Positions 6,225 through 64,000 of a stretch of DNA of 64,000 nt are shown piece by piece. Where the stretch lies: assembly GCA_000091205.1 (NCBI GenBank), contig AP006502.2, one strand, 5' to 3'. The stretch comes from Cyanidioschyzon merolae. Its lineage: Eukaryota. The notes under the pieces are model-generated. The model saw only the letters and a program-made list of their open reading frames with translations. It made no database searches and was not told the DNA's origin. The position numbers and the translations under genes were made by a program. How positions within the stretch are numbered: position 1 is the first letter of the stretch; each line of letters begins with the position of its first letter.

Positions 6225-9159
6225 GCGATGACCCCGTCGTCATTCCATTCAAGTTCTTGAGGCGAATTCCGCAACACGAGCACGTCCACGACATCCGGGA
6301 TTCAGTGATGCCCACCACATCCACATCTAGAATTTCCCTCAACTTCTGTTTGATCGCTCTCCATGCACCGAGCGTACGACGGGATATCGGACGCTTAACT
6401 CCCTCACCCTAGTTTCCGAACTCACTCCATGACCGTCTTTTTGCCACTTGGCACAAGAAGGAGGTGCAGACCCCCTGGATTGCTTTCGGTTCGAAGAAAA
6501 CGTAAATAAAGGTCCTATCCAGGAACGGAAGCGCGTTTGTGGCCTCGTCTGACGTCCAATCTTTGAAAATCTCGTACATACGTGCTCTCAGTGTCTATAA
6601 AAACGGAAAGAAACAAGCATGTGAACTGGGTCAATATTCGCAAGATAGAATCTTAAGCATGTGGAAGTTCGCAAGCGCGTTCGCTACGCCTTGCAGCAAG
6701 TTGGCCTGGAAGACTCAACAAGCGAGACGACGGATTGCATTCTTTCTCGATTACGATCTCGTATGAAGGAGTTCTGCTACAATTTGAGAATGTGAACTTT
6801 TCCTTGGGTTACTTGTGCCCGTTTGTCGTCGTTTGTCTCCCCGGTGGAGTCGGGCGGCACATTTCTTCTGTATACCAGAGGATGTGTTGCACGTGTCCCG
6901 ACGGAATCGTTTTTTCCAGATGAAACGCACCTCCAAACGCTAATCTGGTCGAGAGACCCCAAGATTCCAGATAAGTTTTTCGTTGTTGTAGAGGACGTTT
7001 TCCAGTTTTCAATGCGTGGTATTTGATGCGTCTTGCGTCGACGCGTTTGCGTACATCACGCCGATGGAGTGCATGTCTATAGACCGACGTGCAGACGTCT
7101 CCCCGTCTTTTTGGACCAGCCACCTACTACTGGTTTCAACTCCTTCCCGTACAGTTCGACCCTGAGGGGTTGCCCCATAAAGCTGGATCGCGTCAGTCCC
7201 AGGGGTCTTCTTTGCAGCACCGCATATCAACTGACATTGATGGCGGCTTTGAAGTCTCGGTTCACAAATTCCATGCGTTTCTTGCTGGCGCCGCTGCTTG
7301 TACTCACCAGTGTAAATCATCCTCGAAGTCGTGGCGTCAGTGCTACACCAGTATCGTCGTCGCCGTCCCGTCGGGCAAACACCATTACTGGACTATCCCC
7401 CTACTTCGTCTTCGCCACTTGCTCTTTTCCGCTCGATGGTCGGCGAAAAGGGGAATTTTTCGTTTCCTTTCCGGGAGCCGGCGATGATGGCCCTTCAGGA
7501 TCCCCGACTTTCATATCCATACCTTTTCCTTGGGGTTTATCTCTTCAAATGAACGCACTTCGAACGCGTCTGCTATAAACCGCGAATAAGCATTTGGTGA
7601 CGCACATCTGGATGTGAATCACAATCGAGATGAAATCCATAGCATTGAACTCCTGTGCCATCGGAGCACCGCGAATGTCTGGCACGCGAGGCGCCCAGGG
7701 GACTGAGGTCCGTCCGCCCTACACCAGGGTTGCTGACCCGAACGCTGCGTACCGGAACCGCGAAGGAGCTTGCCAACTCCTTAGTCAATAGTTTGGTTGG
7801 GTTGTATTGGCGTACGCCATATTCGCCTGACTGCGTTGCAAGGTAGCGTAACTGCTTTTGAAACGGAGCTAGCCCTGGTCCATGGTTCGAACGTTGCGGG
7901 CGTGATGCGCGGCCCCATGCCCCGGAGGTTTGCCATTGAGGGCTTCAAGTTCTCGCTCAATTTGATCGTACCGTTTTGCGCTGTTGTGTTCTTTGGTTCC
8001 AGCGATCACTCCTGGCTCGAGCAAGCTGTCGAGCGGTGGCGCTACGTCCAGTATCCCGTCAACGAAGAGTCAACGCTGACCTCCGCTGAAATCACAAGAA
8101 GGGTGTTTAAACAGCCGAAAACCGGGGCAGCTGAGGACCATCGAAAGTGAGCGAGTCTCGCGAAAGGGCGCCGCCCTTGCGCCTTCCGGAAGACACCCGT
8201 CTGGTCACTCCCGATGAGGTTCTGCAATGTTGCTGACGATCTCAACAGCAGGATGCGTGGATGGAAGCGTGGGCTTGCATGCTCGTCGATACCTGAAATC
8301 GAAGAATACCCAGGCCTGCGCAGATAACAGCATCGGTTCAGAAGCCAAAGTCGCAGTCTCCAAAAGCAGATAAGAAATGACCTCGGAACGGCCGGCTGTC
8401 AGACACAGGCACCAGCCACCGCATATCGAAGAAGCTCGCTGGCCTCTATTAGACATCGTCATCTTACCCGAACGCTCACATCATTCCTTGTGAAAAAGCC
8501 ATGGACAACGTAACGCCGAGATCGAGGCCTCTGTGCTGCATAATGCTTGCAACGAGCACGTTGGTAATGTCTGGTGTCAGCGATTTCTCCCAAGCGCCAC
8601 AAGAGATAAACGATTGTATCTCAAGAGCTCACATATAGGGAACGGCTTGCCTCGTTCAGCGCTCGCTTCGAAATATTTTTAGCCCTGTCTGCGAGGCGAC
8701 AACGCGTATCGTAATGCAGATTTTTCTCTTCGACAGAACCTTGGCACAACCTAGCTATCCCCGATCGCAGCGCCTGTTCGCAGCGCACAGGGAAGCATCA
8801 ATCGTTCCACCTGCTTCCAAATTCCACAAGCCGTGCTTTCCCCCGAAGGAACCAGTAATTTTTACGCCATATCGTGCGCCGAGTGCATGCTGTGAACACC
8901 AGCCGTAGCGCCTAAACCGCTGGAGCAGGTGCATCACGGAGACGGAACTGCTCAGGCGCACCACTGAATGCGGTGCAACCAGGGCCACCAGCAGACGCTG
9001 CCTAAGCATCATTAGTCCCGGAATAAACCGCTTTGAAGACGAGTAGAGCAGGTCTCGCAACAGCACCTGCCACTGGGGGGATGGGTATGAAGCACGAGCC
9101 TGGGAGACTCGTCCGGCTCGCTGGACATTCCCTCGAGAATGTAAAGTTTCAGCAATACG

Positions 9160-11770
9160 GAAACCTTTCCCCTTTTTGACGTTTATCGTAAATGGGGAAC
9201 GAAATTGTTATATCGTTGCAATTAAGTCGTGAGTCTCTGTTCTTTTTCCTATAGTGCGATCGATAGGCGCACCTGGGATATCTGGCAGTCTCGAGACACG
9301 ACGCTCACGTCACCGTTGAAGGGGAACGCGATCCTGATCGTTATTATGTTGCTCTAATGTACGAGTAGTAGTTACTTTATAATCGTACCAAATTATAGTT
9401 TTTCAGGTCTATTGTGTTTCAGCCCTCAGGTTAGTATACTCAAGTGTTTTTTCGCGGTTTATGACAGAAGCGTTCAAAAAGCGTTCTTGTTCAAGAAACT
9501 AGAAAAGCAAAGTTATGGAAGAGGAAATGGAGGAGCATGAGGGCACAGCGTCGCCGGCTGCCAGAAAAAAACGGAAAGCATGGCGGAGCAAAGAGGAACA
9601 GGAAAAGACGAAGACGCGGAGGCCGGAGGCCCTACGTCGAAGGCAGCGATAAAGACGACAGTACGACGAGACGGCGGTAAAAGCCTGTCTTCTTACGCAT
9701 ATCAAGGATCCGTACAGGAGAAACCTGCGAGATGCCATCAGAAACCGAGTCGATTCGTACTCCAGGAGTGTTCGTAACGCCTCTTCAGGACTAATGCATT
9801 TGGTGAAGGAGATGTATCGCGACGTGGTGGATTCGAAACCTTCGAGATTACGGAGGAATTTTTCAACATGACCTTTATTCGCCACCTGATGGTTGGCAGA
9901 GGGGAAGCGTCGAAGAAAATGAGCGAGTGGAAGCCCTCCACAAAAAATTACGCCAAATGCCGCGTCGACGCTACTCTATACAAGGTTGATGCGGATATTT
10001 ACACCTACGGTGCGATGAAGAACCATTTGACCATGAACCTCAAACGCTTCATGATACGCGCCGTGTTTGCGCTCTACCCGGGCCTGTCTCGTAGAGGAAT
10101 ATGGACCATCGCCAATTGCATCACAAACGATAGTAAGAATGAACGGGGATCGAATTCGTCGACAAGATGACATCACACGGGAGAAAGAATAAAGATTCCT
10201 TCATCCGCGCGGCTATTCAAGAGCACCGTTCGGTCTTGGGGCTTGTCAACCCAGCAGAAAAGGTATCAGATATGAAAAAAAGATGGAGAAAGATGTTATC
10301 TCCTCATGCTGCGCTATTTCGTGTTTTTGACCGACGCCTCGAACGCAAAACAGAGATGGAGGTAGGTGCGGGACACAAAAGCAGAGTTGGAGCAACGGAA
10401 GGCTACCCTTCAGGCGAAGCGCTTCAACGTCTTTCGGTTATGCAACATCAAGTCGCACTTTGTGAATATCGACTGCAGAGTCGTTCATGGCATCATGAAG
10501 GATATCTGAACGGTGCTCGGTGTAAGCAGGGAGGAGTTCACCGGGGAAAACCGGGAGACGTACTGGAAGCATATCTTCGGCTTCAAACGTGTCAAAACGA
10601 GCAAGCAAAAGTATGCATAGGCATCAGCGAAAGCGATGGAGTAGCCACATGTGTACACTATCAGCGCCTTAGGGTGAATCGTCCTGTTCCGTCTTCAGTA
10701 TCGCCAGTGGCGAAGCATGAGGGAAACAAGAAGGCGGGTCCTACGACGCAGGAGGTGCGGGAGCATGACTTTGTGGTAGGCGCGAACCCCGGAAACACGA
10801 ATATCATGACCATCACAGTACCCAAGCTTGCGGAAGATGGTATTGAAGGCAACCTATGTCAAAAAGACACGCGTTTGTAAGGTTCTAAAGATAGAGACAT
10901 TACTGAGAATCGGGAATAATGAATGCAAGAAAGAAAATTGAGACATGGAATGCACGAGTGAGAGAGCACCTGGAAGCTATGAGCGAGGTGACGAGCCGAG
11001 GAACGGACTTTGGAGCTTTTCGGGAGTTTATGGATGTTCGTGTTGCCCATTGGGATGCACTGTGGGAGGAGTATACCAAGCCCCGGTGGGCTCGTCTGCG
11101 AAAGAATTTCTATTGTGGGAAGCAGCGGGCGTTCGCGAATTTTTTCAATCAGTTGAGTGCCCCGAAGGGGGACGAGAGTCAGAGGCTCGTAGTAGCGTAC
11201 AGAGCAGGGCGCTGGAAGATTCAAAAAGGGTGTACGCCAGCTCCAACGACGAGGGTGTACAAGGAGTGCGCACGTCGTTTCGTTACAATACCGATAGATG
11301 AGTTTCGAACATCGTATACACACCATGAGCTGGGTTGTACACTTCAGAGAGTGGAGATGCAAAAGTGCCAGAGGAGCCCTGAGGATATAGCAAAGTACGG
11401 AGCGCTGACGGAAGAGCAAATGGAAAGGAAGGCGAAAGTTCGAGGGCTACTCGCATCAGTGAATACAACGAACGGGAAGAAACGGATGGAATTCGTGAAC
11501 CGAGACTTTCATACCCCTATCAATATCAGGAGATGTGCAGTGCTGGAGAAAAGACCTCCAGAGTTGACGAGAGCCAACTTTGTTCGACAACCTCTCGAAG
11601 TCGATTTATATGAGAAGAAGTTGGAAGCAGTAGTAGGTGGCCGGTCGAGAAAAACGGGGAGGCGTCTGCACGTCAATTGGCGACTTTTTGTCTAGGGCGG
11701 GTTTCTCGCCACTACTGTACACCGCGGGTATCAACGTTTTTCTTCTGAAAGGCGTTTGTTTTCAGGAGTG
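9160..11770 (+). mobile_element. Compositionally distinct island carrying a Fanzor/TnpB-like gene relic; putative eukaryotic IS605/IS607-type element remnant. Boundaries are approximate.
   Basis: GC drops to ~40% in 9160-9520 and ~48% across the ORFs, against ~57-60% in flanking host genes; contains a RuvC-like TnpB/Fanzor homolog; no clear terminal repeats found. Confidence 0.4.
9515..11695 (+). pseudogene. Fanzor/TnpB-like (OrfB_IS605 superfamily, RuvC-like) gene, disrupted. N-terminal K/R-rich NLS-like region at 9515-9649 ends at an in-frame TAA, then the reading frame changes near ~9860, ~10150 and ~10900.
   Basis: ORFs 9868..10170, 10167..10880 and 10919..11695 are consecutive in different frames. 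The TnpB-like RuvC-I block reads VVGANPGNTNIMTI where GxDxG is expected. A YKECARRF..IDEFRTSYT..C block corresponds to the TnpB YK..G..vv.VdP.yTSq.C block. A RuvC-III-like NRDFHTPINI is at ~11498-11527. The N-terminus reads MEEEMEEHEGTASPAARKKRKAWRSKEEQEKTKTRRPEALRRRQR. Confidence 0.55.
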
Positions 11771-11771
11771 G

Positions 11772-13799
11772 ATGTCTTCCAGCAACACTGGGGTTCGTGT
11801 GCCCGCAGCCGCAAGTGACGTAGAAAGCACGGACACCGGCTATGAGCAGGATGAGGAGCAACTACCGAACCAGCAAGATAGTGAAGCAACGGATCCGGAA
11901 GTTCAGTTTGATGGCGGTACCGATTGGCTGAACTCTTCAGAGGCGGAACCAGTGGAGCTGTCGCGAGCGTATTCTGCTCCAGAGCCGCTGGATGAAGGGC
12001 CCAAACCGAACTTACTGGATATTTCATCTGCGTGGGGTCAAGACTTTGTAGAGCGAGCTGATTCCGAGCTCGAGAGCTACGCCGAGGAGCACCCAGGCCC
12101 TGAAGAACACGGAGCGTCGCAGCAAGAGAGACAACGTTCCAGGTCGTATCTGAGAGCGCTACGAGCGAAGATGGACCGTACCTGGCGTGCAGACTGGACA
12201 CATCGCCTGGGACGCACACTTGACGGCACGGTGGACAGAGCCCGGCCCTACTGGCGCCACCTACGAAGCTCGAGCGGCCTTCGACGTCGGGTGCTTTCTC
12301 GTTCGCCGTCGATGCTCCTTCAGAACCTGAACCACAGCCGCAAAATCATCGCTCGCAAGTCCGTGGAAGCAGCTTCTGAAGCTGCCGAGTTTATATCGTC
12401 ACCAACGCTACTATTCCGACCTGCCAAGATGGCGTTCGCTATTGCGTTCCCTCTGCTCATACCGCTGTTAATCACCCCGTGGCGGATTCTGTTGATCCTC
12501 TTCGTTTTTTACGCCGTCTGGTATCTTGTGGTCGCCGCGATTTTCGCAACAGAGGTGATGATGCGCCCGCCCTGGTACCGAGTTGGACTAGGTGGGCAAC
12601 TGCCGATGGTGGAGATCCCTCCGTACTGGCGCGGCGTTTGCCACAATCCGAAGCAGGATCTCCAGTTGGACTACGTTTCGGTTTCGTTTGAGTCTTTGCA
12701 TCCGCCTCGGCGGACACTGCGCGGCTGGTATATCCCCGCGGAAAGCACTGGAATGACTTTCGAGTCTGGGTCCGAACAGTCAGCCCCTGAAACGGGTGCA
12801 GCAAAACCCAGCGAGGCGAGCAGCGCAGACGCACCGAATCCACATGCAACAACACCGTCTGGTGAGCACGCGACGACGAGTCGCAGCCGAGGCACAACTT
12901 CGACGGGTCGGACCTGTGTAGTCTGTGTGCACGGGGCAGGTCGAGATCGCCGAAACTTCCTGCGCCACGCTGGCGCACTCCACCGCCACGGTTATGATGT
13001 GTTGCTGTTCGACCTCAGCGAGCATGGTCTCAGTGACGGGTCTGGTCGAGGAACCACTTTTGGTGCTCGAGAAAAATATGATGTGCTGGCGGCTATAGCG
13101 TATGCCTACAATGCCCTGCAAGCGGAGCGAATCGTTCTTCTGGGGACTTCAGCGGGAGCCTCTTCCTGCCTGCTCGCAGCAGCTGAATGGATCCGTTTGC
13201 ATCGATTCCTGAAACTGCAAATCGTCGGGCAGCGGCACGAATCATCGCAAGCGCTTAGTGAACAGCATTCTCTTGATTTCCCGGTACAGTGCATCATTGC
13301 AGAGAACCCGCTGGCCCGACCTGACGAACTCTTTATCTTCCATCTGGAGCGCCTCTCGCTCAACTACCTGCCAAAAGATTCGTATCATCTTGCGCGGAAG
13401 ACACTCTTCTGGTTTGCAAGCAGAGTGCTGCTGTTTCGTCTCGCATGGGTAGACCGCGAACCGAGCGCCGTACCAGGGTCTCATTTGCGCCGGCTCTGGG
13501 TAGTGATCAGCACCCTCAGTCGAGTGCTCGGAGGACGGACGCGCTGCGGCGCAGTCGACGTCATGACCGACATTCATTGTCCGTTGTTCGTTTTGCACGG
13601 CACCGGTGATGAAATCGTGCCCGTCGACCATGGCATGCGCATCTTCGCAGCGGCTAACGAGCCCCGTCAGCTGTGGCTCGCTCCGGACGCGGCACACTGT
13701 GCCCTGTTCGATCAGTATCCAACTGAGTGGGAAAATCGGGTTGTGGATTTTATCGAAAAGAGCCTGAGCGAAGAGTCGAATGCGAAATCAAGATCCTGA
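11772..13799 (+). CDS. Membrane-anchored alpha/beta-hydrolase-fold protein with acidic disordered N-terminus, transmembrane segment and C-terminal esterase/lipase-like hydrolase domain.
   Basis: HGAGRDRRNF...GYDVLLFDLSEHGLSDG matches the HG..fD.rGhG.S pattern, GTSAG is a nucleophile elbow, and VLHGTGDEIVP and AAHCAL fit the Asp and His sites. Hydrophobic stretch AFAIAFPLLIPLLITPWRILLILFVFYAVWYLVVAAIF. Start taken at the internal ATG 11772 because the 11637 start overlaps the upstream ORF. Confidence 0.7.
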   Translation: MSSSNTGVRVPAAASDVESTDTGYEQDEEQLPNQQDSEATDPEVQFDGGTDWLNSSEAEPVELSRAYSAPEPLDEGPKPNLLDISSAWGQDFVERADSELESYAEEHPGPEEHGASQQERQRSRSYLRALRAKMDRTWRADWTHRLGRTLDGTVDRARPYWRHLRSSSGLRRRVLSRSPSMLLQNLNHSRKIIARKSVEAASEAAEFISSPTLLFRPAKMAFAIAFPLLIPLLITPWRILLILFVFYAVWYLVVAAIFATEVMMRPPWYRVGLGGQLPMVEIPPYWRGVCHNPKQDLQLDYVSVSFESLHPPRRTLRGWYIPAESTGMTFESGSEQSAPETGAAKPSEASSADAPNPHATTPSGEHATTSRSRGTTSTGRTCVVCVHGAGRDRRNFLRHAGALHRHGYDVLLFDLSEHGLSDGSGRGTTFGAREKYDVLAAIAYAYNALQAERIVLLGTSAGASSCLLAAAEWIRLHRFLKLQIVGQRHESSQALSEQHSLDFPVQCIIAENPLARPDELFIFHLERLSLNYLPKDSYHLARKTLFWFASRVLLFRLAWVDREPSAVPGSHLRRLWVVISTLSRVLGGRTRCGAVDVMTDIHCPLFVLHGTGDEIVPVDHGMRIFAAANEPRQLWLAPDAAHCALFDQYPTEWENRVVDFIEKSLSEESNAKSRS

Positions 13800-22313: not shown

Positions 22314-25300
22314 CCAAAAGTTTTTTACCAAAAGGAATGTATCGTAAAGACAAAAGTCAGAGTGTTCGCGAAAGAGCCTTATGCTGTGTCTGCTAGATAG
22401 CAGAAATTGGCCTCACATGTGTTGGTCAGTCGTTGTCGGGTCAGCAGCAGCATGATCCCCGCTAATTTCAGTCCTTATTCTGAACATTGATCACTCAAAA
22501 CAGCATGTATCAAACGTGTTCCACGCGACCGTCTCCTTGTCAATCACTTCCATTGCATACGTTCGCCAGGAAATGCAGTCAGACAAGCCACCAGGTGTGA
22601 GAATTTCATATCCTAATTCTCTACGGTGATCAAGGGACACGGGTTGGCAGCGAATGCAGCACTGATACCGCAGAACATCCCGTGTTGAAAAACCCACCAA
22701 CTTTTTTTCGAACTACGACGCGAACTATTATTATGAAAGGACCATGTGTTCCTCTCACTCGATTACATGTCATTTGGACGAGCTGCTAGACCTCGATACG
22801 GCCAGTTAAATCAAGGCAAACCCATGTTTGTCAAGAAGAGACAAGCGAGCATTCGGACAACACCAGCCCTGGCAGTGTTCGAATCATGCGGTCGCCTGCA
22901 AATCGCCAAACGAACAGGGTCGTTCAGCACCTCTTCCTTCTTCGGAACATGCTTCGTGGCTTCTGCTTCCGCAATCTTCTGCCCTGGTCGTAGACAAGGT
23001 CGCTTTGCATCACCATAAAGCGGCAAAGGAGTATCCTGATAGGATAGGCTTTGAGCTGCTCTTCGTGCGACGCCATGCTCTCTGGTTCAGTCCCATTCAA
23101 GGCATGCGTATTGATGGCATACGCCTCTTCTGGTCTCGCGGATCACTAAACGGGGCCTATGCATCCGTGACACCGAAATATGCAATATAAAATATAGGAC
23201 TGCGAAGTTGCTTACTCATGCAAGTCTCGTCGAACTCCGTTCGCTTTGATGCACCTCGTCAAGCAACGATGAACAGCCGTTCCAGAGGCCCGACTGCCAG
23301 CGGCCCCATTCCTCAGAATACTTTCCATCAGACGCCCGTGCGACTACACATCTGATGCTCGGGACAGGAGATGCAAGCGGTCTGGTCATTGGATCAGCAC
23401 TTTGAACACGCACTTCCCAGAAAACCCTGACGCCTCGCTGCGACACCACGGCGATCGATAGACCCACAGCGCAGGTGCTCTGGAATCTCATGCCAACCTC
23501 GAGCCGAAAATCAAATGTTAATGAAAGACGAGCGCTTCGCATGGAGCGCCATGTGGGCGTCAGATCCTCGTCTTACTTGCCCAAACAAGTGGAGACAACT
23601 CGGAGCGGCGCCTCTGGTGTGGATCGAGGCAAATGACCAGTTGGTGTGAAAGAAATAAAAGTGGCAGCGACCTTGGGCGAGAGATGTCGCAACGAGAGTG
23701 CGCGTCGCTTCAGATCGTCTACGCCCGTGTGCTGCTCTCTGCTTCGCAATGATGGATGCCGTATTCCGAGAATAGATGAAATCTGGTGCCTGCTTTGCTT
23801 GCATTTTCCGCTACGGTATTTTCGTGGACCGAACCCGCCAGAAAGAAAGCAGATCCAAGCTCTCTATGCCTACGTCCTCGCTTTCTGAGGCAGTTGTTCA
23901 AAATGATCCCCTCTTTGCCAGACCGGGGCCCATTCGATTCCCGTCGACACTTGTTCCCTGTAATGTACACCCTGCTCCTTGGGGTGCTTCCGGTCTACAC
24001 AACCAAGTATGACGCGATCGAATCAATCCACATAGAGCATCGGCGCAGCTGGTTCAAAGTCTCTGGTTTACAGGGAGGAAATCGGAACCAGTCTACAACG
24101 ACGACAGAAACCGATGTCATTTCCATCTGCATGCATTTTGTTGTGAAACCTAGGCCTAACTCGACCAACGATACCCATTTTTTAACCGCTCAAGCCCGAT
24201 ACAGGGAAAAGCTTCGATAGATACGCGTGGATCCTGAGTTTCGGAACATCACACCCGCTACCGAGCGCTTCATAATCCAGGAAGTAGCCTAGGACACGGA
24301 CGGAAAGCAGATCAAGTTGTTCGACTTTTCCAAAACTCGATATTTCCCGAGTTGCCGCTCGACTGTAACGCGCGGAGGCGTACCAACAGGTGAACTGGCG
24401 GCGTCAGAGCCCAGCTCAACGCCCTGAGCACCGTTTCGAGCGGACACGGATGTTGTACGATTCATTCATACTGTACGTGGGCGTCCAAATGGCTCATGTC
24501 GATGACTTATGGCAGAAGGATATGCACTTGCGCTGGTGTCGGGAACGATCCCGGCTGTACGGAGGCAGCTAGCGTGTATCCACCGACTTTTCAATGCGTT
24601 GGAAACGCGTATGACCGATATGGCGCGTCGTTCGGTGGTGGCATCTTGCGCTGGACCTGTCGCAGAGCACAACGTCTGCAATCGTGCTCCTTCGACCAAC
24701 GTGTGCAACAAGCGTGCGGGCCGATTCTGCACGACTTTTATCGATGCGTCTAGAATGACATGACACACATCACGAACTTTTGTGCGCGAAGACGCTTTTA
24801 GAAATGAAGAGCGTGAAATAGCGCCGGATGCATGAGACGATGTATAGGGCAGGCTGGCCGAACCTCAGATGGCGAGGCACTCGTATATGAGAGGCTCGGT
24901 ATGGTGGGGCTTCACAGGCAACAACGCTTGCCAGTAGGTTCTCAACGGAAACTCTAATGCTTCGGTGAACATCTGGAAATATCTCGTGCTTTCGAAGAGA
25001 TTCGGGCGGGTTCGTATCTAGCGAACGTTCCAGGTAAGCATATAATGCGAGCGCGGGCACGATGCTGAGACGCTGAAGACGTGCGATGACAAAATTTATC
25101 CAGCCAGGAGACAGGGACAGAGAACACTGGATTCTTGCCTGGTGCGACGCACTCTAGCGGCACGTCTCAGCAATCCAGAACGGCTCTAACGCCGCGTATA
25201 TACAACGGGAAATGTTGTCCTTGGCAATTGGTGTGAATGATTACGGCGTTTCGTTATTCAGCATTACCAAATATATCCTATCTGATTCCAAATACATGTC

Positions 25301-37700: not shown

Positions 37701-39238
37701 GCGTGCACCTATGTGTGTGTGTGTGTTCGTGCATCGTACAGCGCGCTCGCCGAAACGCTCGCCCAGAAGAAACCCCTGATCGCAGGGTACAGGAAACCGC
37801 TTGGAAACGGAGGAGAGCATTGAGTGGTTCCTTCTGTATCGGCCAAGGGCATCTGTCGAGCGACGAAGCGAGCGTTCACGCTACCCAAAGCGGTTCTCCG
37901 AAAACGGAGTGTCATGGACGTTTGAGAATACCTCACCACAGCCAAGTGGCACCACTGTGAACTGCGCACTGAGCCTGTATACAAGGAGGATAGGAGTAGC
38001 GAGCGGAGCGCAGGTGCAGCTTCCGCCCTGGCGTGAAATACGAACAAGACGGCCAAAAGTGCCACGGCTGGACTTTATCGCCGCGATGAACTCCCGTCGA
38101 CGGCTGACAATGAACCCGGAGAGAATTGTACGGCCGACGGTTGCAACGCAGGATACAACAGGTCACAAAAGGAAGCATGCACATAAAAATACCGCCATGG
38201 CTGCTGTGCGCAGCAACGAAAAAAGACCCAAACTTTCCACGCGAGCTCGCTGCCCGGTCCCATTTTGTTCCTCGTACGGGTGTTGCGCGGCGCGTTCCGC
38301 ATGCAAGGCCGCCGTTCCTTCGAAGCAGATCGAGCGAAATCTGGTAGGCGGACAGCACATGTCGCGGGCCTCTGACGTGTCCCCGCTCTGATCCTGATGA
38401 GCGTTTCGCTCGATCGCCTCAGATGTTCCAATCGAATGTCGTGGCAGCCTACAGCGCGGCGATCGTGGCGCGCACGGCGAAACGTTTCGTCCACAAATAG
38501 AACCGTAGTTTCACCTGAATTATGTTCCACCACCAGACGCGTGTCCTCAAACGCTTTTCGCGGTTTATAACAGATACGTCTGAAGTGCGTTCATTTGATA
38601 CAATATAAAATCTGAAGGATCGTTATGGACATGGAAGACGGGGATTCTGGATGGTGGTTGTCATCGCCGAGTTCGACCAGGAAATCAAAAAAATCCTCTT
38701 CTCGCCGACTATCGAGTGACCAGGGGTATGTGATGAAGAAATTGGAGAGAAAGGCGAGAAAAGGTGCCTGCCCGACGTGACGATGACGGGACTTCCGTGA
38801 TTCAGAGGGCGCGAGTTCGACGACTGCGTCTAAAGGTGCGTTCTGGCAGTGACAGGGAACGCACAGAGTTCGTGCACCCAGACTTTAACGCAGCGATGAA
38901 TACCAGGTGATATGAGGTATTGCACACGCGACCCGACGAGCAGAGACGATCCACCAGCTTTGTCGGGCAGCCTTTCGGAGTCGAAGTGTGCAAGGAGAAG
39001 CTGAACCCGATACAGCACGGGGGCCCGTCGAGACAACCAGGAAGGCGTCTGCAGTTGCGAGTCATATCGACCCTCTGTGGTCGTGAAACGTTTTTCGTTT
39101 TATCGGACAGTGAGAACCGGACACGTGTCCGCGTGCGATCGCAAGCGACTGGCGTCGCATCGTTTTGCGATACGCTTGCCAGAATCTTTTCGAATTCTTG
39201 TTCTAAACGCGTGCATTATTGTGCGTTACAGGGATACA

Positions 39239-62729: not shown

Positions 62730-64000
62730 TCAGTTAGCAAGAGCCAGGGACACCGCAGGTTTCGCCAAAATACGTTGGGACGTTTCTGGGGCGCGGCAGT
62801 TGTCGCTGGGGAACTGCTTCGAAAGCGAATCGCAGCATTGAGGCGCAGCACGCTGCCACTCCTCGTGCCTTCGCTGCTGGAACAGAGCGATTTCTCGGGA
62901 GCGGCTTATAAAGTGCCCCGTAGGATGCAGAAGACTGCTGCATCTCGGAACACGCTTTACTATCGAATGATAAGGAACACTTGTCGTTCATTAACTGTGG
63001 AGGGAAATCGTTTCTGGTCCACGCACCTGTCTATATACGGCGCTGCAGCGTGCCTGCATTGCTGAGTTGTACCGTGCAAGTGCCTTGCTGCAGGCGCGAA
63101 GAGAACGCCGCCTCCTCTGACCAGTGATTTTCGTCATAGAAAGCCTTTGGGGTTTCACGGCAATGTCCGCACGAAGCACGAGACGATTCGATCGAGTCTT
63201 CGCCGGGCACCACGTCGCTGGACGCTCCGAAAGCATGAGACCTGTTCGAACGCTGACCAAAGCGTTCAAGTCTCGACGCAGAGCGTGCTTGCGCGCATGG
63301 TTGCAGGAGGAATCACGCCAGAGCAGGGTGCTCACCTTCGATATCCTCGCGGTCTGACAACCGTGTAGCGTATCAAACACAATATCTGGTGCGTCCGTCT
63401 CTAGCTCATGCTCTGCCTCTCTGCCCGTTTCATCATCCTCCTGTGTTCTTCATTCGCGGATGTTGTCCTGCACGCAACGATGGGCATCGTACAGAATCGA
63501 TGCCTTTGCTCGTTCGACGCTGCCCTCTAATGAGCAGTAGTGCAGGATTTTTGCGATACACCAATTCTAGCGCCAGAGGCTACCAAGATACGATACGACT
63601 CGTCGGACATTTTCCGCTACAACGCATTGAGCGATTTGGAGGACGCACGCTTTTGGCGTCCGCACAACAGACACCGTTGCGTATCCTAGCGGTGTCGTAT
63701 AGACTCTGGTTAAAGCTCCTCTGCATGAGCCATTTGGACGCTAAGGTACTCCCCGAATAAAGCGTACAGACCATGCTGCTTGGCCCCGTGCGGAGCCCAG
63801 TATGTCGAGCCTAGCCCTGTCGCCGTCGTTTCTCTAGTTGGAATGCGTGCCGGCGTCGAGCAGGCCTGTCTTGTCACTATGGAGATCGCTGGAAAATATG
63901 AGACGATTCATGTTGGTTCCATTCTGGTTATCGGTTCCGTCCTGTTGATGCTGAGGTACGGCGACGACGATGATGCCCTGGCACCCGGGATCCGTGCCCT

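Follow-up and report, generated by a model that had tools for sequence, protein, structure and literature searches.

Cyanidioschyzon merolae harbours CMe-1A, a family of Fanzor1 elements (Bao and Jurka, 2013; PMC3627910), published as comprising ∼150 copies that are ∼80% identical to the consensus, ∼3 kb in length, free of TIRs and with one Fanzor1 ORF. Structures have been solved for the Fanzor1 proteins SpuFz1 (8GKH), PpFz1 (9CF0), and GtFz1 (9CER). In SpuFz1, D383, E541, and D606 form the published Mg-binding triad (residue numbers from PMC10432273), of which E541, located in LLDEYKTS, is the relocated catalytic Glu (PMC10432273, PMC11423790). In all Fanzors, the canonical RuvC-II position is occupied by a small residue, and a downstream Glu is used instead (PMC10530073, PMC10711439); many of them, but not all, possess a C4 zinc finger (PMC10711439). 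ISDra2 TnpB and IS200/IS605 TnpB (OrfB_IS605, Cas12f1-like_TNB) are described in the literature as homologous RuvC nucleases with the same motif order, whose guide RNA derives from the 3′ end of the element. TnpB1 is prokaryotic and, unlike the CMe-1A family, has both a Glu at the canonical position and a C4 zinc finger.

The window analysed here, a stretch of 64,000 nucleotides of C. merolae (contig AP006502.2), contains a CMe-1A-type Fanzor1 element (Table 1). Its extent is indicated by the blastn depth against 80 related loci, which climbs from ∼8870/9260 and ceases at ∼11720–11760; the conservation profile was used for the left extent (∼8870), and similarity is lost beyond ...GAAAGGCGTTTG in the right-end alignment. 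Protein homologues number 235, with E-values down to 1.7e-166, and genomic matches more than 405; the similarity between the window and its homologues is far beyond chance. The locus belongs to the multicopy CMe-1A family as one of its copies, matched on the published description (same host, multicopy, ∼3 kb, a single Fanzor1 ORF, and old copies ∼80% identical to the consensus). The element size and the absence of TIRs, a property taken from PMC3627910, fit the window copy, and this comparison by published description detected no difference between the two. The family has been in the literature since 2013, and the window locus adds one decayed copy to it.

Two internally deleted copies, in which only the 5′ and 3′ portions are left, are also present in the window at 7083–7596 (−) and 38555–39057 (+). 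They resemble the Ghost Spu-1 elements of S. punctatus, which are Fanzor elements without an ORF (PMC10432273), although the Spu-1 ghosts are flanked by 30-nt inverted repeats and CMe-1A has none. A hydrolase gene starts ∼12 nt downstream of the Fanzor1 element, and a RuvB-like helicase ORF in the window is an exact match to C. merolae 10D BAM83367.1.

Table 1. Features of the CMe-1A-type Fanzor1 copy; positions are those of the window.
Feature	Position	Strand	Remarks
CMe-1A-type Fanzor1 element copy	8870..11750	+	left end approximate; right end sharp to ∼3 nt
Degenerate Fanzor1 coding region (very probable pseudogene)	9515..11695	+	alignable over its full length with the consensus CDS (784 codons); 83.8% nt identity
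RuvC-I, G-A-N-P-G	10779..10793	+	Asn codon AAC (10785–10787) in place of catalytic Asp (consensus GAC)
Lesion cluster between RuvC-I and the remainder of the RuvC domain	10875..10906	+	1-nt deletion at 10875, then TAA, TAG, and TGA stops
Residual open ORF, C-terminal third	10919..11695	+	258 codons; begins at an ancestral internal Met
Canonical RuvC-II strand, VVAYRAGRW	11189..11215	+	within QRLVVAYRAGRW; aligns with TVVMGDW of SpuFz1
IDEFRTS, relocated catalytic Glu intact	11294..11314	+	Glu 11300–11302; aligns with E541 in LLDEYKTS of SpuFz1
TNB zinc-ribbon equivalent without C4 site	11318..11470	+	THHELGC...EMQKC...RGLLASVNTT; second Cys (EMQKC) at 11354–11368
RuvC-III, NRDFHTPINIRRC	11498..11536	+	Asp 11504–11506 kept; aligns with D606 of SpuFz1; NRDF at 11498–11509
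Conserved 3′ untranslated tail to element right end	11696..11750	+	conserved in ∼40 copies; flanks diverge beyond

Fanzor1 homology and frame integrity

Searches of Pfam, NCBIfam, and PDB with the window ORFs returned no relevant match, and neither did a PDB search with the profile of the close family alone. The TnpB models of Pfam and NCBIfam (OrfB_IS605, Cas12f1-like_TNB) matched neither the window ORFs nor members of the family, and distant relatives reached only sub-threshold scores against Cas12f1-like_TNB (18.5–18.9 bits; cutoff 26.3). The Fanzor1 link emerged only once distant relatives from a representative search were added. The resulting profile A2, which comprises the family and 40 relatives in an alignment of 44 sequences, matches the three solved structures, PpFz1 (9cf0, E = 1.8e-21), SpuFz1 (8gkh, 3.1e-14), and GtFz1 (9cer, 9.6e-6), with similarity spanning the REC/WED and RuvC regions. 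Judged by this profile similarity, the window locus is a Fanzor1 homologue, in agreement with the original prediction. Because the AlphaFold2 model built on a 25-sequence family alignment was unusable (mean pLDDT 39, pTM 0.21), residues were mapped through the profile alignment to the solved structures, in which an offset of +394 to the numbering of 8gkh_P yields D383, E541, and D606.

The consensus, taken as the majority of 57 full-length copies, is a single open frame of 784 codons. Relative to it, the window copy has nine frameshifts (indels at 9832, 9914, 9948, 10144, 10275, 10327, 10369, 10611, and 10875) and five premature stops (9650, 10507, 10886, 10892, and 10904), which break the gene; the window copy is unable to make a Fanzor protein. 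The region is very probably a pseudogene, i.e., an old CMe-1A Fanzor1 copy that decays neutrally. These frameshifts and stops, absent from the original prediction, are the main evidence for a dead gene, ahead of the motif changes, and they bear out its proposal of a dead relic. Lesions are present in every one of the 57 sampled full-length copies (minimum 1, median 7). In the 5′ part, substitutions relative to the consensus are distributed evenly over the codon positions (88/81/100). Hypermutation of this part was considered and rejected, the substitution spectrum being unremarkable (transitions 51% vs. 60%).

All motif strings that had been quoted from this copy are present on the + strand (Table 1), but they do not share a single reading frame: GANPG lies in the frame of ORF 10167–10880 and the remaining motifs in that of ORF 10919–11695, with the 1-nt deletion and three stops (10886, 10892, and 10904) between them. 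Where homologues encode LLRFSRARYYRESGIM, the window reads VRF-stop-R-stop-RHY-stop-ESGIM after the frame change; at 10904, the L001 orthologue has CGA in place of the TGA. A still functional Fanzor1, in which the frame changes represent introns or programmed frameshifts and the Asn of RuvC-I is tolerated as in GtFz1, is extremely improbable. Although a GT...AG pair at 10877–10929 (53 nt) would connect both main frames, homologues and the consensus are colinear through this supposed intron and encode the interrupted segment straight through, on which ground the intron was rejected, and eight more 1-nt indels and two more in-frame stops are located upstream. Very few introns are present in C. 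merolae.

Catalytic motifs of the RuvC domain

The RuvC-I column aligns with SpuFz1 D383 and with the DPG of PpFz1, supporting the original reading of the ANPG block as homologous to RuvC-I with Asn replacing the Mg-binding Asp. In the family (n = 57) this column contains D in 49 copies, N in four, H in two, and A in one; the family consensus is GADPG, and D-P-G is thus found in the family and not in the window copy. The replacement of the Asp by Asn is real erosion and specific to the window copy. GtFz1 functions with Asn as its third triad residue, and D606N raises the activity of SpuFz1 (PMC11423790), which might suggest that such a residue is tolerated; however, this precedent concerns the third triad position and not RuvC-I, where an Asp-to-Ala exchange inactivates ApmFNuc.

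Loss of the RuvC-II Glu, which had been called from the canonical strand, does not hold. An acidic residue occurs at this strand (family VVAYGAGRW) in no family member, and the Arg at 11201–11203 reflects a copy-specific Gly-to-Arg change in a column with G in 103 and R in nine of 120 sequences. The Glu of IDEFRTS, relocated as in all Fanzors, is intact in the window copy, where IDEFRTSYTHHELGC starts at 11294; the alternative Glu of Fanzor1 is described as lying six residues ahead of the first zinc-finger position. The corresponding residue of (V/I)DEFRTS is E in 110 of 120 family members and invariant among the 44 sequences of A2. Retention of the RuvC-III Asp, by contrast with the call for RuvC-II, was correctly predicted: N-R-D is present at 11498–11506, but the conserved N-A-A that follows the Asp is H-T-P in the window copy (11510–11518), in columns where the family has D in 83, N in 74, A in 85, and A in 83 of 94 sequences.

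In the aligned columns, the window Asn corresponds to SpuFz1 D383, the E of IDEFRTS to E541, and the D of NRD to D606, and the D, E, D triad is invariant in the A2 alignment; the counterparts in the 784-aa consensus are D481, E653, and D722. Of the triad that had been named beforehand for a check by alignment, the Glu and the RuvC-III Asp are in place and the RuvC-I Asp is replaced by Asn. The solved Fanzor1 proteins and the CMe-1A family have in common a DPG-type RuvC-I, an N-R-D RuvC-III, a non-acidic canonical RuvC-II residue, and a catalytic Glu in D/E-E-[FY]-[RK]-T-S, whereas the window copy differs from the former by the Asn for the RuvC-I Asp and by its frameshifted gene. Beside frameshifts and stops, copy-specific substitutions have struck conserved positions, i.e., Asp-to-Asn in RuvC-I, Gly-to-Arg adjacent to the canonical RuvC-II position, and NAA-to-HTP after the RuvC-III Asp. 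Comparison with other genomic copies, as had been recommended, separated the copy-specific Asp-to-Asn change from the lineage traits of the Glu and the zinc finger. Of the four features originally listed under erosion, one (Asp to Asn) is real decay, two are lineage traits, and the fourth, the kept RuvC-III Asp, is correct.

The residual ORF and its history

The C-terminal ORF is free of frameshifts and stops relative to the consensus, with no lesion in the last 258 codons and 14 in the first 526; under uniform lesion placement, the chance of such a lesion-free end is ∼0.001–0.01. Divergence from the consensus declines from ∼0.19 to ∼0.09 at the ORF start (codons 520–540), a drop that might point to constraint. 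Against this, the codon-position divergence of the 3′ part (0.085/0.066/0.171) equals the family norm (0.094/0.070/0.171), and its third positions have no excess divergence like that seen 5′. The orthologous copy in L001/L002 is 99.44% identical overall, a shallow comparison (0.56% divergence) with low power. Between strains, the element differs by 0.88%, the ORF by 1.03% (eight differences, five nonsynonymous and three synonymous), the frameshifted 5′ part by 1.0% (14 differences, including two indels and a polymorphic stop), and the flanks by 0.48%. This shallow strain comparison provided no sign of an open frame under purifying selection at the orthologous locus; the open part of the gene is confined to its last third. 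As an explanation, selection acting on the 258-codon ORF was rejected, because the third-position bias equals the family norm and the strain comparison shows no constraint.

The original prediction also offered an exapted, binding-only derivative, an option disfavoured by the lesions and by the strain comparison. We regard it as very unlikely that the C-terminal ORF, or a catalytically dead Fanzor, has been kept by the host to bind nucleic acid, with the downstream hydrolase gene as a conceivable target. The ORF does remain open despite the lesion-riddled upstream two thirds, divergence falls about twofold at its start, it retains the relocated Glu as well as the RuvC-III Asp, and the insertion is common to two environmental strains. 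Yet the ORF lacks WED, REC, and the RuvC-I strand and, from the architecture in PMC10432273, would not form a RuvC fold alone; it evolves between strains at the rate of the frameshifted part and twice that of the flanks; highly conserved columns have changed (G to R and NAA to HTP); the last third is lesion-free in eight of 58 copies; and the exact sequence of the ORF is not among catalogued proteins.

A mosaic copy, whose 3′ third (from ∼10900) has a separate history, e.g., because a younger copy recombined with it or served as donor in gene conversion, is a possible refinement of the pseudogene reading, with a probability somewhat below even. Such a history would explain both the lower divergence and the absence of lesions in the 3′ third without selection. 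It is in line with the divergence step at codons 520–540 and with the 5′ excess, which affects all codon positions equally but is missing from the 3′ part even at third positions; an equal or larger 5′/3′ divergence ratio occurs in four of the other 57 copies. However, no donor copy with more than 86% identity was found among 57 copies, and the step may be due to chance or local rate variation. That third positions of the 3′ part lack this excess speaks more for a mosaic history than for selection.

The zinc-ribbon region and the ancestral element

The zinc ribbon of the window copy had been described as reduced to single cysteines by decay. The single cysteines are real, but the family consensus (THHELGC...EKC...RGLLALVSTT) has the same arrangement; the first Cys of known Fanzor1 proteins aligns with His, and the second Cys pair is absent. 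Among 101 distant relatives with both flanking motifs, both Cys pairs are found in only one and the zinc finger is absent in 100, which indicates that the missing C4 site is a trait of the whole clade and not decay of the window copy. Solved Fanzor1 proteins carry a CxxC...CxxxxC zinc site whereas the CMe-1A family and its clade do not, and the Fanzor-defining motif of Bao and Jurka (2013) includes a C4 zinc finger that the C. merolae family lacks. The His-His...Cys...Cys arrangement in CMe-1A might be a replacement of the zinc ribbon.

The clade around CMe-1A comprises 1517 clusters at 50% identity (E ≤ 0.001), mostly environmental. That CMe-1A belongs to a large Fanzor1 clade that has dispensed with the TNB C4 zinc finger while its D/E/D triad stayed invariant, with codon-position patterns that show long purifying selection, is put forward tentatively, as a rather doubtful proposal. 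This proposal concerns the family and not the dead window copy.

The ancestral element probably encoded a Fanzor1 of 784 aa whose N-terminus was basic and NLS-like. Its RuvC-I was of the DPG type, the canonical RuvC-II position was taken by a small residue, VDEFRTS carried the relocated Glu, RuvC-III read NRDFNAAINIRRC, and a C4 zinc finger was lacking. Judged by homology, this protein would have been an RNA-guided DNA endonuclease whose guide RNA came from the element's 3′ end. The 3′ tail (55 nt) has a sharp end and lies where a Fanzor guide-RNA scaffold would end. It contains a GGCG...CGCC hairpin that is paired in 35–39 of 39 sequences; RNAalifold predicts short helices only, the folding energy per copy equals that of shuffles (median z = −0.1), and Rfam has no match in the window.

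Since 2023, the relocated Glu has been textbook knowledge on Fanzor, and the window copy, as one of ∼150 decayed copies, is of little importance itself. Applying the TnpB/Cas12 motif yardstick to Fanzor leads to false inactivation calls, for the canonical Glu and, in the CMe-1A clade, for the zinc finger; in pseudogene calls, frame integrity and comparison with the family consensus should come first. As a by-product, this study yields an intact consensus sequence, reconstructed at 784 aa, for a Fanzor1 that lacks a zinc finger. If the proteins of this clade are active, they would be RNA-guided nucleases without the zinc ribbon once thought to be strictly conserved in TnpB/Fanzor.

A decayed copy of the CMe-1A element

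The RuvB-like helicase ORF in the window and the Cyanidioschyzon merolae 10D protein BAM83367.1 are identical, and further housekeeping genes of the window are single long ORFs too, which fits a red alga with few introns. Searching proteins with the translation that bears the motifs returned 235 homologues, all metagenomic, at 55-98% identity, and a metagenome contig scan gave >405 genomic matches. Bao & Jurka 2013 (PMC3627910) described CMe-1A as a C. merolae Fanzor1 element with ~150 copies, each ~80% identical to a ~3-kb consensus, with no TIRs and with TSDs undetermined. The window locus, in which similarity to other copies runs from ~8870/9260 to a sharp end at ~11750, is a member of this family as a pseudogene; the family and its relocated-Glu active site are both already published.

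A majority consensus built from 57 full-length copies forms one open frame of 784 codons (MKKQVDD... to ...SWRRFV), to which the window copy is 83.8% identical. The original prediction read the locus as a relic and was right, given nine frameshifts and five premature stops (see table); these decisive lesions were overlooked there, and of the four arguments it gave for this reading, two were wrong. Every string that it quoted was located on the + strand. The motifs are split over frames, with GANPG in an ORF at 10167-10880 and the rest in a different frame, in an ORF of 258 codons (10919-11695), and upstream to 9515 the protein-like translation switches among all three frames. Between GANPG and the 258-codon ORF, other copies encode LLRFSRARYYRESGIM, whereas the window copy reads VRF*R*RHY*ESGIM after the frame change; a 53-nt intron joining both frames was ruled out because other copies are coding there. 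All 57 copies sampled carry at least one lesion (median seven), and the window copy is an ordinary decayed transposon gene without the capacity to encode a Fanzor protein.

Motifs, lesions and related relics in the window
Feature	Position	Strand	Remark
GANPG (RuvC-I)	10779-10793	+	Asn codon AAC 10785-10787
VVAYRAGRW (canonical RuvC-II position)	11189-11215	+	
IDEFRTS (alternative Glu)	11294-11314	+	
THHELGC	11318-11338	+	
EMQKC	11354-11368	+	
NRDFHTPINIRRC (RuvC-III, NRD)	11498-11536	+	
1-nt frameshift indels, n=9	9832, 9914, 9948, 10144, 10275, 10327, 10369, 10611, 10875	+	vs consensus CDS
Premature stops, n=5	9650, 10507, 10886, 10892, 10904	+	vs consensus CDS
Internally deleted CMe-1A copy	7083-7596	-	pieces near 5' end and 3' end only
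Internally deleted CMe-1A copy	38555-39057	+	pieces near 5' end and 3' end only
Divergent Fanzor1-like relic	24364-25000	+	broken across frames
Divergent Fanzor1-like relic	63186-63998	-	broken across frames; continues past window end

Catalytic residues and the zinc finger

No Pfam, NCBIfam or PDB matches to the window ORFs or the close family were found. A profile search over 1.84 billion representative proteins yielded 1517 relatives, and the profile of alignment A2 (four family members and 40 distant full-length relatives) matched the Fanzor1 structures of Parasitella parasitica (9cf0, E=1.8e-21), Spizellomyces punctatus (8gkh, E=3.1e-14) and Guillardia theta (9cer, E=9.6e-6). The aligned residues 777, 935 and 1000 of chain 8gkh_P become, minus a 394-residue fusion offset, D383, E541 and D606 of SpuFz1, which coordinate two Mg ions (PMC10432273, PMC11423790). 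By this profile alignment the window copy has the Asn from GANPG at D383, the Glu from IDEFRTS at E541 and the Asp from NRD at D606; the D/E/D columns are invariant in A2.

The Asp-to-Asn change in RuvC-I is real: the family column holds D in 49 of 57 copies (N 4, H 2, A 1), and consensus GAC has become AAC. The Asn also occurs in the orthologues L001 and L002 from environmental strains, because strain differences spare that position. In GtFz1 the third triad position is naturally occupied by Asn, and the D606N change raises SpuFz1 activity above that of the wild type (PMC11423790), so Asp to Asn need not mean inactivation by analogy; unlike that position, the RuvC-I Asp has no known case of tolerated replacement, and its Ala mutant is inactive (PMC10530073). 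Since the gene is broken, the catalytic effect is moot in the window copy.

The claimed loss of the RuvC-II Glu did not hold. As a class, Fanzors replace the canonical Glu with Gly or Pro and rely on a conserved Glu reported ~45 residues downstream, mutation of which inactivated ApmFNuc (PMC10530073); Yoon et al. define Fanzors by DPG together with this alternative Glu, placed six residues ahead of the first Cys of the zinc finger (PMC10711439). No acidic residue occurs in the family consensus VVAYGAGRW, and the alternative Glu, 33 residues downstream, is intact in the window copy and conserved in 110 of 120 members. The Gly-to-Arg change adjoining the canonical position is copy-specific (family G 103/120, R 9/120). 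As predicted, the RuvC-III Asp is retained, followed by H-T-P in place of the conserved N-A-A.

The degenerate zinc finger is correct as a description of the sequence, but not as erosion of this copy, since the family consensus itself reads HHELGC...EKC. Throughout CMe-1A no second Cys pair occurs (RGLLALVSTT); among 101 relatives with alternative-Glu and RD motifs, from the 149 best representative relatives, one has both pairs, and at the corresponding residues known Fanzor1 proteins read CPRC...CTNPNC. Comparison with other family members leaves D to N as a copy-level change, whereas the Glu and zinc-finger traits are family-wide. The wider clade (1517 clusters at E<=0.001; full-length members ~600-740 aa, representative relatives P0121-P0269), known only from metagenome and Logan assemblies, retains DPG, the alternative Glu and NRD without a C4 zinc finger, LLWCxST being conserved instead. 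This differs from the defining Fanzor/TnpB motif of Bao & Jurka, which includes the C4 zinc finger (PMC3627910), and no description of its absence from CMe-1A and this large environmental clade was found in the Fanzor literature consulted. Judged from these sequences, the absence is a property of the family and not particular to the window copy. Precomputed annotation places Pfam PF26935.1 on several family members (P0007, P0020, P0021 and others); rescanning P0007 and P0046 with hmmscan against Pfam-A gave no match.

Constraint on the 258-codon ORF

The original prediction also allowed for an exapted, binding-only derivative. The last 258 codons carry no disabling lesions, compared with 14 in the first 526, and divergence from the consensus falls from ~0.19 in the 5' two thirds (9515-10900) to ~0.09-0.10 in the 3' third (10919-11695), with a step near codons 520-540. 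By codon position, the 3' part (0.085/0.066/0.171) shows the same third-position excess as the pooled family (0.094/0.070/0.171), which therefore reflects selection in active ancestors and not after insertion. The 5' part lies above the family norm to a similar degree at each codon position and the 3' part shows no excess, third positions included, a contrast that appears to point to a mosaic history and not to protein-level selection. Exchange between copies, by recombination or gene conversion, is suspected behind the step; no donor copy was found among the 57. The 5'/3' ratio is equal or larger in four of the other 57 copies, and the last third is lesion-free in 8/58.

The window and contig Ga0078972_1001132 are 99.44% identical over 13.4 kb, with the insertion common to both; between these strains the element differs by 0.88% and its flanks by 0.48%. 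The 258-codon ORF has eight differences in 777 nt (five nonsynonymous, three synonymous) and the broken 5' part 14 in 1404 nt, two of them indels; at 10904 the other strain still has CGA in place of the stop. Because these differences match, the ORF drifts as fast as the plainly dead part, a comparison of little power at such shallow strain divergence. The WED and REC regions are also missing from the ORF taken alone, as is the RuvC-I strand. Exaptation of the window copy or its ORF is unlikely.

The ancestral element and related relics

The 784-aa protein of the CMe-1A ancestor would, from its homology to SpuFz1, PpFz1 and GtFz1, have been an RNA-guided DNA endonuclease. Its reconstructed consensus has a Lys/Arg-rich, NLS-like N-terminus, ~25-aa tandem repeats of variable number directly before RuvC-I, and an active site of DPG, alternative Glu and NRD. 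The acidic repeat unit (KDEEKKEADPATQEVEDNDLVV..., window 10700-10780) varies in copy number between copies (loci L005, L008, P0005), with one unit in the window, three in the consensus and ~6 in some copies, counted by eye; the last unit itself supplies the NDFVVGADPG strand, and the tandem units explain doubled blastn depth at 10700-10780. By analogy, the guide RNA would be derived from the element's 3' end, where the 55-nt tail beyond the stop codon shows conservation that stops at a sharp boundary; a search of this tail for structural signal gave nothing convincing. This scheme is not applicable to the window copy, which is unable to encode the protein.

An alpha/beta-hydrolase gene (ORF 11762 to 13799; annotated Abhydrolase_1 on the orthologous contig) has its ATG (11762) only ~12 nt past the right end of the element (11748-11764 region), and transposon sequence now makes up its upstream region. 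As this ATG adjoins the element, the would-be Fanzor guide sequence, immediately 3' of it, covers the start codon.

Both internally deleted copies retain consensus nt ~175-314 and ~2346-2587 and are similar to the S. punctatus 'ghost' Fanzor elements that lack an ORF; alternatively, they possibly reflect the relationship that Bao & Jurka noted for TE-N2_CMe. Over the RuvC region the two divergent relics share 27-38% amino acid identity with the consensus of CMe-1A, which suggests that the C. merolae genome has a second and older Fanzor1 family.
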